Under the pieces are notes generated by a model. The model saw only the letters and a program-made list of their open reading frames with translations, was not told the DNA's origin and searched no databases. From Escherichia coli (GTDB taxonomy: Bacteria > Pseudomonadota > Gammaproteobacteria > Enterobacterales > Enterobacteriaceae), in the NCBI RefSeq assembly GCF_003334385.1, contig NZ_QOWN01000001.1: DNA of 64,000 nucleotides. One strand, written 5' to 3'. Of this stretch, positions 21,212 to 57,471 are shown piece after piece (position 1 is the first letter of the stretch; every line of letters starts with the position of its first letter). Both the position numbers and the translations under genes were made by a program.

Positions 21212-21557
21212 AGTAAATAGCTGACTTATGGATGTGCTGGGGATTCTATGTATTTAGCTGTGGCTTTACCATTACTTTTCCCGTTTTTGACTTAAATAGC
21301 TTCAGTTTGGTCTGATCTGCCGCTACATCTTCATTTTTTTTGTATTTTTATGCGATTCATTGAAACTCGGCCCCATTTTCAAATCTACATAGGCCGTACT
21401 GACATTATCGAAATGCTATTTTTTATCTATTTGATTTTTATGATTAAAGTATATTTTGTGTATAAAAATCATTCGGGTCGGATTGCTGCGAAAGAAATGA
21501 TACACTAGCACGTCAAAGTAAGTGCGTTATCAGTATTCAGGTAGCTGTTGAGCCTGG

Positions 21558-21569
21558 GGCGGTAGCGTG
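21558..21569 (+). promoter_or_regulatory. ops element (RfaH-dependent antitermination signal) in the waaQ leader
   Basis: GGCGGTAGCGTG, about 50 bp upstream of waaQ within a 405-bp AT-rich divergent intergenic region. Confidence 0.8.
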
Positions 21570-48063: not shown

Positions 48064-48537
48064 CTAATCTCTCAATACCGCTCCCGGATACCCCAACTGC
48101 CGCCAGGCTTCATACACCACTACCGACACCGCATTGGACAGATTCATGCTGCGGCTGTCCGGCACCATCGGAATGCGAATTTTTTGTTCAGCGGGCAGGG
48201 CATCAAGAATGCTCGCTGGCAGGCCGCGTGTTTCCGGGCCGAACATCAGATAATCGCCATCCTGATAGCTTACGGCGCTGTGAGCAGGTGTACCTTTCGT
48301 GGTGAGGGCGAACAGGCGCTGGGGATTTTCTGCTTCGAGGAACGCGCGATAGTCATGATGACGCGTAACGGCGGTAAACTCGTGATAGTCCAGCCCCGCG
48401 CGGCGCAGGCGCTTATCGTCCCAGGCAAATCCCATCGGTTCGATGATATGCAGACGAAAGCCGGTATTAGCGCAAAGACGGATGATGTTGCCAGTATTTG
48501 GCGGAATTTCTGGTTCGTAAAGTACGATGTTTAGCAT
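48064..48537 (-). CDS. trmL: tRNA (cytidine/uridine-2'-O)-methyltransferase TrmL
   Basis: 157-aa [30 protein letters not shown]... (SpoU fold). Confidence 0.94.
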
Positions 48538-48538
48538 A

Positions 48539-48730
48539 CTGCCCCCTTAGTGCGGGGGCAGGATAGCAGAAAATTGGTGAGCAGTGCGGCCTTTTCCCCT
48601 CACCCCGGCCCTCTCCCCGGAGGGGCGAGGGAGAAAAAAAGAGTGCGGTGTCGTTTCAGAGTGAGGGAGTACATACAGCGCCGAACGGTCCCCTCTCCCT
48701 GAGGGAGAGGGTTAGGGTGAGGGGGCGCAA
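48539..48730. repeat. GC-rich palindromic intergenic repeats between lldD 3' end and trmL
   Basis: TGCCCCC...GGGGGCA hairpin, then CCCTCTCCCCGGAGGGG and CCCTCTCCCTGAGGGAGAGGG units flanked by GGGTGAGGG; same family recurs at 55356-55555. Confidence 0.6.
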
Positions 48731-48734
48731 ACGA

Positions 48735-49925
48735 CTATGCCGCATTCCCTTTCGCCATGGGAGCCAGTGCCGCAGGCAACTCTTTACCCAGCCCCTGCAC
48801 CAGCGAATCTTGCGTAATTTCGCTGATCGATTTCGCGCCAGTCAGCGTCATCGCCACTTTCATCTCTTTTTCGATCAGATTTAGCAGGTTAGCTACACCC
48901 GCCTGGCCCGCTGTTGCCAGCGCATACAAGAAAGCACGACCCAGCAGTACGGTGTCGGCACCGAGCGCAATCATACGCACGACATCAAGCCCGTTACGAA
49001 TTCCGCTATCCGCCAGAATGGCTATATCACCTTTCACCGCATCTGCAATAGCAGGCAGTGCACGGGCGGAAGAGAGTACACCGTCCAGCTGGCGGCCACC
49101 GTGGTTAGAAACCACAATTCCATCAGCACCAAAACGTACTGCATCGCGCGCATCTTCCGGATCGAGGATCCCTTTGATCACCATCGGGCCATCCCAGAAA
49201 TCGCGGATCCATTCAAGGTCTTTCCATGAGATGGACGGATCGAAGTTATTCCCCAGCCAGCCGATGTAATCTTCCAGTCCGGTCGGTTTGCCGAGATAAG
49301 CTGAGATATTACCTAAATCATGTGGACGACCGTTCAGGCCCACATCCCACGCCCATTGCGGATGTGTCACCGCTTGCAAGTAGCGGCGCATTGCCGCGTT
49401 CGGGCCGCTCATACCTGAATGCGCATCACGGTAGCGTGCGCCCGGTGTCGGCATATCCACGGTGAAAACCAGCGTCGAACAACCCGCTGCTTTTGCTCGC
49501 TCCAGCGCGTTACGCATAAAGCCGCGATCGCGCAGTACATAAAGCTGGAACCACATTGGGCGCTTGATGGCTGGCGCGACTTCTTCAATCGGGCAAACGG
49601 AAACCGTCGAGAGAGTAAACGGAATACCATGCGCGTCCGCCGCTTTGGCTGCCTGAACTTCGCCACGACGCGCATACATGCCACACAAACCCACCGGAGC
49701 CAGTGCCACCGGCATCGACAATTTCTCATTAAACAGCGTCGTTTCCAGGCTTAAGTCGGACATGTTTTTCAGAATACGCTGGCGCAGCGCCACTTCTGAC
49801 AAATCTTCCACGTTGCGGCGCAGCGTGTATTCAGAATATGCACCACCATCCATATAGTGGAACAGGAACGGCGGCAGAATGCGTTGCGCTGCGGCGCGAT
49901 AATCGCTGGCTGCGGAAATAATCAT
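48735..49925 (-). CDS. lldD: L-lactate dehydrogenase (FMN-dependent)
   Basis: 396-aa ORF recognised as LldD. Confidence 0.96.
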
Positions 49926-53592: not shown

Positions 53593-54180
53593 TTACTTTT
53601 GAAAGGCTTTTTTTAAGCTGATTTTGGAAATCAGCTCAGTCAGTGAAAGGACCATTGTTGATCGCACAGCCTGTTGATAGCGCTGAATTTGCATTGCATA
53701 CAAACTGGAGTCTGCTGGTTCAAACTGTGGCGGCGGTGGTAACGCCGCCACGCAGTGCAGTTCACCAAAGGGTCCAAGGATTTCGTCGTCGGTAAAGGCG
53801 TACTCGTTGCCGTCGTGATTTAGCTCTTCACGCAATGCCATCAGCAGTTCCGCATCTTCGTATTCCTGGCGGTTAATGACGCCCAACCCGTAAATGAGTT
53901 TTAAACGCACAGAAAGATCGCCCAGCGGACCATCGCCGTCGAGTAACGGTTCTACAGCATACTTCACCGCGTAATCGTCTTTGCGGAATACCTGAAGCAC
54001 CAGAAGATTTACCGCCTCGGTCAGGAGCTCGACGGCGGTGATCAGAAAGCTTCGCACGGTTTTGCCAGCATTCAGACGCTCAAGCACACGGTTTTCAAAG
54101 GCCTGGGTTTGTTCCATTGTTGCCTGCATATCTGACAATCTGTTATTCGGGCGCAGGGTGTCCTGCGCCTGGTCCACCAT
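53593..54180 (-). CDS. mtlR: Mannitol operon repressor
   Basis: 195-aa ORF; shares a base with mtlD stop. Confidence 0.93.
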   Translation of the reverse strand: MVDQAQDTLRPNNRLSDMQATMEQTQAFENRVLERLNAGKTVRSFLITAVELLTEAVNLLVLQVFRKDDYAVKYAVEPLLDGDGPLGDLSVRLKLIYGLGVINRQEYEDAELLMALREELNHDGNEYAFTDDEILGPFGELHCVAALPPPPQFEPADSSLYAMQIQRYQQAVRSTMVLSLTELISKISLKKAFQK

Positions 54181-55328
54181 TATTGCATTGCTTTATAAGC
54201 GGTTACCGCCTCGGATACAACCTCGCTGTTGGCATCAAGACCGGAAATCTGTGCCAGCGCCGCCTGCGGACCTTTGTCAGCGATCAGTGCTGCCAGTTCC
54301 TGAGCCTGCGGATCATCTTCACTGCGGAAGTGCATTGCAGCGGCAATACCTTCAATCAGGTTTTTATGTGGCAGACCATATTCCAGCGTACCGAGCAGTG
54401 GCTTGATCAGACGGTCGCCAGCACTCAGTTTACGCAGTGGCTGACGGCCTACGCGCTCTACATCATCTTTCAGATACGGGTTCTCAAAACGGCCGAGAAT
54501 TTTCTGGATGTACGCCGCATGCTTGTCAGCGTCAAAGCCGTAGCGCTTGATCAATACTGCACCACTTTCTTCCATCGCACCTTTTACCACCGCGCGGATT
54601 TTCTCGTCGAGAATCGCGTCACGAATGGTCTGATGACCGGCCAGTTTTCCGAGGTACGCGGTTATAGCATGACCCGTGTTCAGGGTGAAGAGTTTACGTT
54701 CGACAAATGCCATCAGGTTGTCGGTTAACTCCATGCCTGGGATGTTCGGCAGTGCGCCTTTGAACTGCGTTTTATCGACAATCCATTCGCTGAAGGTTTC
54801 TACCGTCACTTCCAGCGGATCGTTAGTTGCCGAAGCCGAAGGCGGTACGATGCGGTCAACGGCGGAATCGACAAAGCCAACGTGTTCTTCTACCCACGCT
54901 TTGGCGTCTTCCGGCAGGGCGTTCATCACATGGCCTTTCAGCTGCGTGGTACCGCGTACCATGTTTTCACAGGCGATGATGTTCAGCGGGGATTCATTAC
55001 CTTGTTCTTTACGTTTCACCAGCCCTTTGGCGATTGCCGGAGCAATACGTTCCAGCACAACCGGGCCAACGGCGGTAGTGACTAAATCAACCTGAGCAAT
55101 CAGATCAACGACATCATCACCAATGCTGCTGACAGCATTGACGCCGGAAACGGTATCTACCTGCTCGGTTTCACCAACCACATGTACCTGATAGCTATGA
55201 CGGGCATTCAGGGCATCAAGTACCACCTGATTGACATCGGCAAACGTCAGTTGGATACCCGCGTCTGCCAGCAGTTTACCGATAAAGCCACGACCGATAT
55301 TACCTGCGCCAAAATGTAATGCTTTCAT
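54180..55328 (-). CDS. mtlD: Mannitol-1-phosphate 5-dehydrogenase
   Basis: ORF track frame 54180..55646; start at [20 protein letters not shown] (382 aa). Confidence 0.96.
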
Positions 55329-55355
55329 AGTATTAACCTTCATCAATGTTTTTAC

Positions 55356-55555
55356 CCGAGAGGGCTGGGGTGAGGCTTTTCCCTCACCCAAACCCTCTCC
55401 GTGAGGAGAGGGGCAGCGCCGGATGCGGCGTAAGCGCCTTATCCGGCCTACAAGAACGTGCAAATTCAACAAATTGTGATGCATCCTGTAGGCCTGATAA
55501 GCGTAGCGCATCAGGCAATTAACCCCACCTTCTCCATGTGGAGAGGGTGGGATTG
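55356..55555. repeat. BIME/REP cluster plus GC-rich palindromic units in the mtlA-mtlD intergenic region
   Basis: Two inverted REP units (GCCGGATGCGGCGTAAGCGCCTTATCCGGCCTACA at 55418-55452; TGTAGGCCTGATAAGCGTAGCGCATCAGGCA at 55494-55516) flanked by CCCTCTCCGTGAGGAGAGGG and CCACCTTCTCCATGTGGAGAGGGTGG palindromes. Confidence 0.7.
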
Positions 55556-55557
55556 GA

Positions 55558-57471
55558 TTACTTACGACCTGCCAGCAGTTCCAGCACTTCATCCACGCTG
55601 GTGGTGTGTGCCAGACGCTCGATGACGGACTCATCATCCAGTGCATTGGTCAGGCTGGTGATAACCTGAATGTGCTCGTTGTTACGGGCAGCAATACCAA
55701 TCACCAGACGGGCAATGTCATCTTCTTCTTCACCGAAGCGCACGCCTTCCGGGTACTGGCAGAACACGACGCCCGTTTTCAGTACGCGATCTTTCGCTTC
55801 AACCGTACCGTGTGGCACCGCGATAGACTCACCCAGATAAGTCGGGGTCAGTTTTTCACGATCCAGCATCGCCTGAACGTATTCCGGCTCAACGTAACCG
55901 CCTTTCACCAGCTGCTCGCCAGCAAAACGAATCGCTTCTTCTTTGGTTGCCGCTTTGCGACCGAGGAAGATGTTCTCCGCGCCTAGCTTGAACAGGTTAG
56001 CACTGGAATCGTCAAAGCTGTCTTTCAGGCTGTCTTTTACTTTCTCTTCGTTTGCCGTGTGGCGTTGGGCAGCAACCAGACGTTCGGTCAGGCTGGTGTA
56101 CAGGCCGCTGTCGAGGAAGTTGGTCAGCGAAATATGCTGTGCCTGCGGAACCTGGCGCATAGCGCGTTCGGTCAGGTCACGGTGAGTGATGACGAGGTCC
56201 ACATCTGGCGGCAGGTTGTTGATCGCGCTGTTAGTAACAGAAATCTGCGACAGACCTGCATCCTGAATTTTCTTACGCAGAACGCCTGCGCCCATCGCAC
56301 TGGAACCCATACCGGCGTCACAGGCAACGATGATTTTACGTACGTGGCTCAGGTCGTTAGTCACATCGCCAGCAGACAGCGGAGATGCGCCTTTAGACTC
56401 AGCTTTCATGTCCTGCATACGACGAGTTGCTGCTTCAATATCATCTTCTTCTTTCACTTTGCTGGTTTTCAGCAAAATAGCAGAGACAACGAAGGAGACA
56501 GCCATCGCCGCACACACACCCGCGATGTTAGCGAAGTAAGCACCTTTTGGTGTCATCGCCAGTACAGCAAGGATAGAACCCGGAGACGCCGGAGAAACCA
56601 GACCACCGCCCAGGATAGTCAGCGTGAACACGCCAGTCATACCGCCGAGGATGACTGCGAGGATCAGACGCGGATTCATCAGCACATACGGGAAGTAGAT
56701 TTCGTGGATACCCCCCAGGAAGTGGATGATTGCCGCACCGCCCGCAGACTGTTTAGCGCTACCACGACCAAAGAACATGTACGCCAGCAGCACGCCCATA
56801 CCTGGACCTGGGTTAGCTTCAATCAGGAAGAAGATTGATTTACCCAGTTCATGGGACTGCTGAATACCCAGCGGCGAGAAGATACCGTGGTTAATGGCGT
56901 TGTTGAGGAACAGGATTTTCGCCGGTTCAACAAAGATAGACGCCAGCGGCAGCATGTCATGGACAACCATGAAGTTAACGCCCGCAGCCAGCATTTTGGA
57001 CAGGGCTTCAACAATCGGGCCAATGCCGAGGAATGCCAGAATAGCGAGGATCATCCCGATGATGCCTGCGGAGAAGTTATTCACCAGCATCTCAAAACCG
57101 GATTTGATCTTACCGTCTACCCAGCGGTCGAAGTGCTTAATGCACCAGCCGCCCAGCGGACCTGCAATCATAGAACCGAGGAACATCGGCATGTCTGCGC
57201 CGACGATAACGCCCATGGTGGTGATGGCACCGACTACGCCGCCACGTTCGCCGCCTACCAGCTTACCACCGGTATAACCGATCAGCAGCGGCAGGAGATA
57301 AGTGATCATCGGCCCGACCAGCTTCGCCAGCGTCTCGTTCGGTAACCACCCTGTTGGAATAAATAACGCGGTGATGATACCCCACGCGATAAACGCGCCG
57401 ATATTTGGCATCACCATGTTGCTGAGGAAACGACCAAAGCTTTGCACTTTGATCTTAATATCGGATGACAT
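55558..57471 (-). CDS. mtlA: PTS mannitol-specific EIICBA component
   Basis: 637-aa ORF recognised as MtlA. Confidence 0.96.

Follow-up and report, generated by a model that had tools for sequence, protein, structure and literature searches.

We consider it likely, taking all parts together, that the G+C-rich units in the lldD/trmL and mtlA/mtlD spacers of Escherichia coli represent BoxC, a G+C-rich, non-coding repeat that is found dispersed in E. coli as well as in many other bacteria, and that they form hairpins, act as a stop for exonucleases in RNA and are prone to slippage in DNA. BoxC, the PIT element, TMECO and HPG1/HPG2 are one family under four names. The repeat was described as BoxC by Bergler et al. 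(1992) and Bachellier et al., and as PIT element by Hoyne et al. (2000). Holder et al. (2015; PMC4666352), who recorded that it had earlier been called BoxC and later PIT element, renamed it TMECO, with the consensus CCCTCNCCC-N3-6-GGGNGAGGG-N3-GGGNGAGGG, and listed 23 copies in strain MG1655 (Table 1 of PMC4666352). Kaplan et al. (2016; PMC5100583) treat the same sequences as G-quadruplex candidates HPG1 and HPG2 (HPGQ), without using the name BoxC. According to two further papers, BoxC measures ~56 bp and occurs in 32-33 copies in K-12. Thus the family, the list of its copies in E. coli and both copies between lldD and trmL are already in print, the latter also in the supplement of Holder et al.

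The stretch of DNA analysed here (the window) comprises 64 kb of E. coli K-12-type DNA and is oriented as the reverse complement of NC_000913.3; a 501-nt stretch of it is 100% identical to MG1655. The genes and features that matter for the analysis are the following.

48064-48537, minus strand: trmL
48596-48631, minus strand: TM18, a BoxC unit of type B with one mismatched triplet; exact match to Table 1 of PMC4666352
48632-48690, no strand: 59-nt spacer between the two head-to-head units, holding the outer-flank sequences of both
48687, minus strand: primary lldD mRNA 3' end (genome position 3,781,065), from Term-seq, Supplementary files 1 and 3 of PMC7815308
48691-48724, plus strand: TM17, a BoxC unit of type A; exact match to Table 1 of PMC4666352
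48735-49925, minus strand: lldD
54180-55328, minus strand: mtlD
55358-55413, no strand: collapsed tail-to-tail BoxC pair of 56 bp, by profile and architecture
55418-55516, no strand: BIME of two inverted REPs plus linker, not BoxC, by REP pattern and inverted repeats
55422-55451, plus strand: REP, by REP pattern (0 expected)
55488-55512, minus strand: REP, by REP pattern (0 expected)
55521-55554, no strand: hairpin AACCCCACCTTCTCC ATGT GGAGAGGGTGGGATT, 4 nt past the mtlA stop codon
55558-57471, minus strand: mtlA

A sequence-only reading of the window had proposed a GC-rich palindromic repeat family shared by both spacers and had left it without a name. Indeed, the family is real and common to both sites, and its name is BoxC: the two lld units match TMECO 17 and 18 exactly, and a profile built from the 23 MG1655 copies with 22 nt of flank (nhmmer, 128 kb searched) detects the mtl site at 55372-55411 on the minus strand (23.7 bits, E=1.2e-6), the mtl units themselves being outside the profile. 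Rfam, at its gathering threshold, assigns the G+C-rich units to no family; its sole match in the window is JUMPstart at 21531-21569. The motifs are also where they had been noticed, and a chance origin was rejected on their counts, which lie far above shuffled or expected values. The combination CCCTCTCC-N3-7-GGAGAGGG occurs twice in the window (48691-48711 and 55393-55412) versus 0 in 100 shuffles, GGAGAGGG occurs six times versus 0.62 expected, all six in the lld and mtl spacers, and GGGTGAGGG with at most one mismatch occurs 24 times versus 6.8 expected, with 10 of the 24 in the two loci. The flanks of the third mtl unit are CCCAC and GTGGG, not CCCTCACCC and GGGTGAGGG as had been assigned to the units. 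The same reading began its lld feature at 48539 and so included a hairpin that covers the trmL ribosome-binding site and is unrelated.

Recurrence of the units across the genome, which the sequence-only reading had proposed to check, was confirmed. All 23 published TMECO copies were re-found in MG1655 at their published coordinates (17 further loci were fetched), and the original K-12 GenBank record carries 33 annotated BoxC copies. All 23 strict copies are intergenic, one of them adjoining fabI. Conserved sequence reaches past the 36-nt core into flanks that are specific for each type: type A has the loop TTA, with ..GaGCaC-N4-6-GGTC before and GAACAGGCC.GCAC after the unit, and type B has the loop CCG, preceded by ..TTTTCY. 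In each unit a C block is able to pair with either of two G blocks, so that a very stable hairpin forms in any single strand, whether of DNA or of RNA. At four MG1655 loci, a B-unit, a conserved spacer of 16-28 nt and an inverted A-unit are joined tail to tail to a composite of ~100 bp. According to Holder et al. (PMC4666352), units occur in either orientation and with equal frequency before and after genes, the neighbouring genes share no common functional class and the distance to the ORFs is not fixed.

The two lld units show the complete anatomy of the family. TM17 reads CCCTCTCCC TGA GGGAGAGGG TTA GGGTGAGGG G (full sequence CCCTCTCCCTGAGGGAGAGGGTTAGGGTGAGGGG), is TMECO no. 17 (3,781,061-3,781,028) and HPGQ 43 (HPG1) of PMC5100583, carries the type-A flank GAACGGTC and lies 11 nt past the lldD stop codon. 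TM18 reads CCCTCGCCC CTCCG GGGAGAGGG CCG GGGTGAGGG G (full sequence CCCTCGCCCCTCCGGGGAGAGGGCCGGGGTGAGGGG), is TMECO no. 18 (3,781,121-3,781,156) and HPGQ 44 (HPG2) of PMC5100583, and carries the type-B flank TTTTTTTCT; it scores 53.8 bits (E=5e-16) against the profile, which itself includes TM18. Strict core matches in the window are confined to these two units (48691-48723 on the plus strand, 48597-48631 on the minus strand), and so are canonical G-quadruplex motifs of the form (G3N1-7)x4. The pair resembles other BoxC/PIT/TMECO/HPG copies in core, TTA and CCG loops, flanks, intergenic site and the inverted pairing of an A- with a B-unit. In contrast to the other four pairs of MG1655, which are tail to tail with 16-28 nt between the units, it alone is arranged head to head; its G tails point outward, the spacer measures 59 nt and the 22-nt arms are 86% complementary.

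Transcription from lldD towards trmL yields the C-rich complement of TM17, with a 9-bp hairpin CCCUCUCCC-UCA-GGGAGAGGG on its 3' side (-18.4 kcal/mol), followed by the G-rich sense of TM18. RNA folding, likewise proposed in the sequence-only reading, predicted that both spacers are strongly structured. For the lld spacer the predicted energy is -92 kcal/mol (z=-3.9), with the two units pairing with each other; for the mtl spacer it is -113 kcal/mol (z=-7.5), predicted as a chain of hairpins. Single hairpins in both spacers range from -18 to -36 kcal/mol.

Public Term-seq data, with coordinates converted, place the 3' end of lldD mRNA at 3,781,065, 4 nt downstream of the TM17 stem. The sequence-only reading had suggested a role at mRNA 3' ends or in mRNA stabilisation, and this mapped end together with those at five further copies partly supports it. 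About two thirds of the reads run on past the lldD end into trmL. The lldD end is low in reads (~1000), with the depth falling from 338 upstream to 232 downstream. Adams et al. (2021; PMC7815308) give it an intrinsic-terminator score of 1.32 versus a threshold of 3 and a Rho score of 1.49, flagged as significant. At the five further BoxC copies, a Term-seq 3' end lies 4-11 nt past the hairpin, in four of them at +4 or +5.

164,636: TM2, strict copy, +5
3,959,467: TM20, strict copy in G-rich sense, +4
4,231,270: degenerate copy, +4
847,200: degenerate copy, +4, in two conditions
632,098: degenerate copy, +11

With at most 3110 listed Term-seq ends spread uniformly, 0.2-0.3 such ends would be expected and six or more would arise with P ~1e-7; the assumption of uniform spread matters, as an eightfold intergenic enrichment lifts the expectation to ~2. 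At the ppiC terminator, too, the end lies at +4. Since Term-seq ends commonly lie ~4 nt past any stable stem, that of ppiC included, the effect is generic to hairpins and not specific to BoxC. The mtl operon is not expressed under the Term-seq conditions used. In the BoxC, PIT, TMECO and HPG literature we found no link between the hairpin and a mapped RNA 3' end.

Adams et al. (PMC7815308) and work cited there hold that 3' exonucleases shorten RNAs whose transcription was ended by Rho. A transcribed BoxC hairpin would stop 3'-to-5' exonucleases and so leave, as at lldD, a 3' end that is processed and lies 4-5 nt downstream. The simplest and most likely reading is that the hairpin acts in RNA as an exonuclease stop: Term-seq supports the end, from which we infer the mechanism, and we likewise infer the step from the mapped 3' end to a stabilised lldD mRNA. 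In reporter assays, PIT elements had neither promoter nor terminator activity (Hoyne and Maher, as cited in PMC4666352). Therefore, any effect at the RNA level must be post-transcriptional. Such setting of 3' ends would resemble the role of REP and would not amount to termination, most transcripts being read through into trmL.

REP RNA hairpins have classically been reported to protect upstream mRNA from 3' exonucleases, and by analogy BoxC would most likely work like REP at the RNA level. Both BoxC and REP/BIME are short palindromic intergenic repeats, often located past stop codons, with copy numbers that vary by strain. REPs have been linked to RAYT transposases and are far more numerous than BoxC, with a few hundred copies. 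Unlike REP, with which it shares no sequence, BoxC has three blocks, which provide potential for triplexes and G-quadruplexes, and no known mobilising enzyme.

At the mtl site, the sequence-only reading had placed the units at operon 3' ends. This is wrong, as the mtlA/mtlD spacer is internal to the mtlADR operon. The block at 55358-55413 has the layout GAGAGGG CT GGGGTGAGG CTTTT CCCTCACCC AAA CCCTCTCC GTGA GGAGAGGG G. It consists of a degenerate type-A-like unit (55381-55412, minus strand) and of a type-B unit reduced to its two G blocks (55358-55375, plus strand; profile E=0.27). Read from mtlA to mtlD, it comprises an A-unit, AAAA, an inverted B-unit with the hairpin tip deleted and a GGGtaaaaac flank that parallels the GGGagaaaac flank of intact composites. 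This layout and the matching flank identify the block as a collapsed tail-to-tail pair, with the spacer down to 5 nt and one hairpin tip deleted. Partial deletions at palindromic sites that leave a hairpin possible were reported by Holder et al. (PMC4666352), and the mtl block is of like kind. Its RNA is predicted to fold with -36 kcal/mol (z=-4.0).

The mtl unit fails the strict pattern: it reads CCCTCTCC-TCAC-GGAGAGGG-TTT-GGGTGAGGG, with 8 of 9 positions in two blocks. The block is absent from the 23-copy TMECO list and from the HPGQ list, as far as these lists were available. Judged by its sequence, it is a degenerate relative of the BoxC family that strict published searches missed. Of 5426 complete E. 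coli genomes, 5405 contain the 62-nt mtl BoxC block, 4825 of them with at least 99% identity, and in a BLAST search of a 28-Gb database only the orthologous locus passes.

The remainder of the mtl spacer is made up of the BIME and a second hairpin, 55521-55554 (predicted RNA energy -23.2 kcal/mol, z=-4.6), which the BoxC profile does not match at E<10. Direct repeats of 21 nt at 55392-55412 and 55527-55547, 135 nt apart, are identical at 18 of 21 positions (86%). In O55:H7-type strains, exactly those 135 bp, i.e. the REP pair plus one hairpin copy, are missing and one hairpin copy is kept. The repeat and the 135-bp indel indicate that 55521-55554 arose by duplication of the mtl block's end hairpin and then diverged; on this comparison, it is not a BoxC member itself but a diverged duplicate of part of one. 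The number of REPs at the site varies by strain (0, 2, 4 or 8), and where there are 2, 4 or 8 they lie between the same two hairpin copies; the variable part of the mtl spacer is thus the BIME. The stretch 55418-55516 has a median of 18 matching places per genome.

The lldD-trmL spacer is highly polymorphic: a 501-nt query across it is covered over at least 80% in only 3531 of 5421 genomes. Five alleles of this spacer were read.

K-12: the form present in the window
12-nt deletion: one copy of the 12-nt direct repeat CCCTCACCCCGG/CCCTCTCCCCGG is missing, which turns TM18 into a plain hairpin
34-nt palindrome: replaces the spacer and the inner blocks; junction found in 801 genomes
CE10: a single outer block is left
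CFT073 and other B2 strains: no BoxC, 47-nt spacer

The stretch replaced or deleted in the other alleles corresponds to 48632-48690, and the 34-nt palindrome of the 801-genome allele represents one end of an IS4-family insertion sequence, including its terminal hairpin. As B2 strains lack the lld units, the units are dispensable. Holder et al. (PMC4666352) described local instability at TMECO loci and found BoxC loci more variable than control loci, and the polymorphism deduced from the allele sequences fits this report. As the comparison of alleles shows, the repeated blocks favour slippage, deletion and insertion in DNA and thereby give rise to the polymorphic spacer. The near-invariant mtl block is at odds with a general rule that BoxC makes DNA unstable. 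Most simply, BoxC is a repeat, selfish or neutral, whose structure has side effects.

Four other readings of the units were weighed. The first, which is compatible with the explanation given above and which we regard as unlikely, sees in the units a present or former miniature mobile element, a composite of ~100 bp that was moved by a transposase and spread horizontally. The four tail-to-tail pairs speak for it, as they share spacer and outer flanks and have inverted ends; such composites resemble MITEs (ERIC/IRU and RSA in E. coli) in being ~100 bp long, multi-copy and intergenic, with a conserved interior. The presence or absence of the lld units among E. coli lineages also agrees with mobility. 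So does the wide occurrence of the strict core of 33-36 nt, which is multi-copy in Polaromonas, Archangium, Verrucomicrobia, Hyphomicrobiales and others, each with its own flanks. With one genome taken per species, the strict pattern was found, among the ~10 genomes listed, in at least Polaromonas, Archangium, Verrucomicrobia, Armatimonadetes, Hyphomicrobiales, Contendobacter and a Bacteroidaceae MAG; each of these genomes outside E. coli has many copies with near-identical core and lineage-specific flanks, some of them in inverted pairs. The wide distribution was already known, since more than 260 genomes with the motif had been reported by Holder et al. (PMC4666352). When intergenic position in the other phyla was assessed by a stop-to-stop test, 85-100% of random positions also fell in long open frames at the 61-70% G+C of these genomes, the Bacteroidaceae locus (48%) excepted. 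Unlike MITEs, most BoxC copies are solitary 36-nt units, and there is no parent insertion sequence; inspection of the composites by eye revealed no target-site duplication, and no candidate transposase is known. Moreover, Holder et al. (PMC4666352) saw no tie to transposons, phages or plasmids, and for most of their 62 TMECO loci synteny is kept between strains. Nor is the empty CFT073 allele a clean insertion site, as its flanks also depart from those of K-12.

According to a second reading, the units work in vivo as non-B DNA, either as a triplex or as a switch between G-quadruplex and hairpin, and thereby regulate their neighbours or stall replication. The G-rich strand of the consensus types indeed forms an intrastrand triplex in vitro, as observed by CD and NMR, and causes polymerase stops in vitro (PMC4666352); by CD, it adopts a G-quadruplex in K+ and a hairpin in Mg2+ (PMC5100583). 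That the lld units are the sole canonical G-quadruplex motifs of the window, and that BoxC loci in general and the lld spacer in particular are variable, would be in line with such a role. However, neither fold was observed in vivo or in duplex DNA: with the complementary strand present only duplex formed, and in vivo DMS footprinting revealed no triplex protection (PMC4666352). Against regulation of neighbours stand the lack of a common functional class among the flanking genes and the variable distance to the ORFs. Furthermore, the mtl copy has mismatched triplets and cannot form a canonical G-quadruplex because one of its runs is GG, yet it is kept in nearly all E. coli genomes, at the count given above. 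We judge this reading quite improbable.

Very improbable in our view is the third, that the units are true terminators, intrinsic or Rho-dependent, which close the lldPRD operon and attenuate between mtlA and mtlD. BoxC resembles intrinsic terminators in placing a G+C-rich hairpin soon after a stop codon (11 nt past that of lldD in the case of TM17), with an RNA 3' end a few nt past the stem, here 4 nt; the region is flagged as significantly Rho-dependent, and Kaplan et al. (PMC5100583) speculate on such a role. However, BoxC differs from intrinsic terminators in having no U-tract. A consensus scan of the minus strand (48300-49000 and 55150-55750) detected no hairpin-plus-T-run at either locus. 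The intrinsic score of 1.32 stays below the threshold of 3, PIT elements were inactive in the reporter assays as cited in PMC4666352, and the lldD site is mostly read through, by about two thirds of the reads. The occurrence of units in both orientations, equally often upstream and downstream of genes, also disagrees with termination. The terminator role offered as one option by the sequence-only reading is thus not borne out.

That the units are degenerate REP copies or flanking motifs of BIMEs, as the location of mtl units directly on both sides of the two-REP BIME might suggest, is refuted by the REP pattern, the lld context and the strain comparison: the units contain no REP sequence, the REP pattern occurring only at the two mtl REPs, which the BoxC profile does not match; the lld units have no REP nearby and the REP consensus (GATGCG...CTTATCMGGCCTAC core) has no match in the lld spacer; and the BoxC block is unchanged in strains with 0, 2, 4 or 8 REPs, in agreement with the distinction from REP drawn in the sequence-only reading.

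The explanation of the units as BoxC copies whose RNA hairpins stop exonucleases makes an overall addition that is modest. It ties the four names together and contributes the decayed mtl pair, the hairpin duplication around the BIME, the series of lld alleles and the link to RNA 3' ends. If this link holds, a long-standing orphan repeat would have a REP-like post-transcriptional effect. Only tentatively do we extend it to the idea that BoxC hairpins generally determine where RNA 3' ends lie in E. coli, acting in either orientation and shaping the stability of the upstream message. If true, this would provide an in vivo role for a family that was left without one through three decades as BoxC, PIT, TMECO and HPGQ, and the series of BoxC and REP hairpins in the mtl spacer would uncouple the levels of mtlA from those of mtlD.

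Four BoxC pairs of MG1655 are arranged tail to tail, and the sole head-to-head pair in this genome is that of the lldD/trmL spacer, comprising TM18 (48596-48631, - strand) and TM17 (48691-48724, + strand).

MG1655 164.5, 624.6, 3046.0 and 3239.6 kb (L006-L009): tail-to-tail BoxC pairs

All four tail-to-tail loci share a conserved spacer (TTCGCRCCAGTGCYGGCCTGTTC-like) as well as conserved outer flanks. The repeat unit at these loci is composite; it is about 100 bp long, has inverted ends and exceeds the published definitions (36 nt for TMECO, 56 bp for BoxC). Among the matches listed (L023-L142), the strict BoxC core is multicopy in Polaromonas, Archangium, Verrucomicrobia, Armatimonadetes, Hyphomicrobiales, Bacteroidaceae and others; its 33 nt are nearly identical across these distant phyla, while the flanks are lineage-specific and repeated in their own right, as exemplified by gataaaaagaacgttgttgccccct..ttgcgggctccgcccgcgttag from one metagenome-assembled genome (MAG).

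The lldD-trmL pair itself exists in several alleles, in which the following features are relevant.

L003 (E. coli S3), about 245-295, corresponding to window 48618-48700: 34-nt perfect palindrome TGTCTCTTGATCAGGAGATCTGATCAAGAGACAG
L147, 2501-2534: the same 34 nt at another site, where they form the terminus of an IS4-family insertion sequence
Window 48597-48620: CCCTCACCCCGG/CCCTCTCCCCGG, a tandem direct repeat of 12 nt within TM18

The palindrome takes the place of the inner part of the BoxC pair in 801 complete E. coli genomes. Its last 19 nt are identical to the IS50 inside end, and the palindrome looks like a solitary IS-end scar within the BoxC pair. In a common allele (L002; strain 2012C-4606 and others) a single copy of the 12-nt repeat is left. 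Loss of one copy removes the middle block of TM18, and thereby converts the three-block unit to a plain hairpin; this reduction is a clean example of slippage.

Pattern scanning of both strands of the whole 64-kb window for canonical G-quadruplex motifs, (G3+N1-7)x4, returned these two sites and no others:

48596-48618, - strand: canonical G-quadruplex motif
48703-48725, + strand: canonical G-quadruplex motif

The G-rich sense of the former, which lies in TM18, is present in the lldD-to-trmL RNA, where it precedes the trmL start by about 60 nt.

The mtlA-mtlD spacer (window 55413-55548; L143-L146) contains 0, 2, 4 or 8 REPs, depending on the E. coli strain. The 0-REP allele of O55:H7 and O157:H7 differs from that of K-12 by exactly 135 bp, which are bounded by 21-nt direct repeats at 55392-55412 and 55527-55547. 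Either the BIME was gained in an event that also duplicated the BoxC hairpin, or recombination between the two copies removed it.

Elsewhere in the window, one Rfam element was detected:

21531-21569, + strand: JUMPstart (RF01707), 55.2 bits

JUMPstart is a known element, the ops-containing leader of long polysaccharide operons; the copy detected here is ordinary and the operon it leads is presumably the waa cluster.

The published Term-seq data (Adams et al., PMC7815308) contain a very abundant fepB leader 3' end at MG1655 624,680 (- strand; about 100,000 reads), with an intrinsic-terminator score of only 1.39. This end is located 4 nt before the RNA reaches the BoxC pair TM8/TM7 (adjoining L007 347).

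A further hairpin is found at the beginning of trmL.

48536-48564, - strand: hairpin CUGCCCCC-GCACUAA-GGGGGCAG, overlapping and directly upstream of the trmL start (48537)

Its predicted fold has -18.7 kcal/mol (z=-3.1) and sequesters the G-rich stretch at the expected position of the trmL ribosome-binding site. Term-seq places a 3' end at genome position 3,781,218 (window 48534) with a Rho score of 3.68, i.e. 5 nt past the hairpin and 3 nt inside the trmL ORF, and the trmL reporter of Adams et al. showed no Rho effect (PMC7815308). Expression of trmL may be under translational or attenuation control via the start hairpin.
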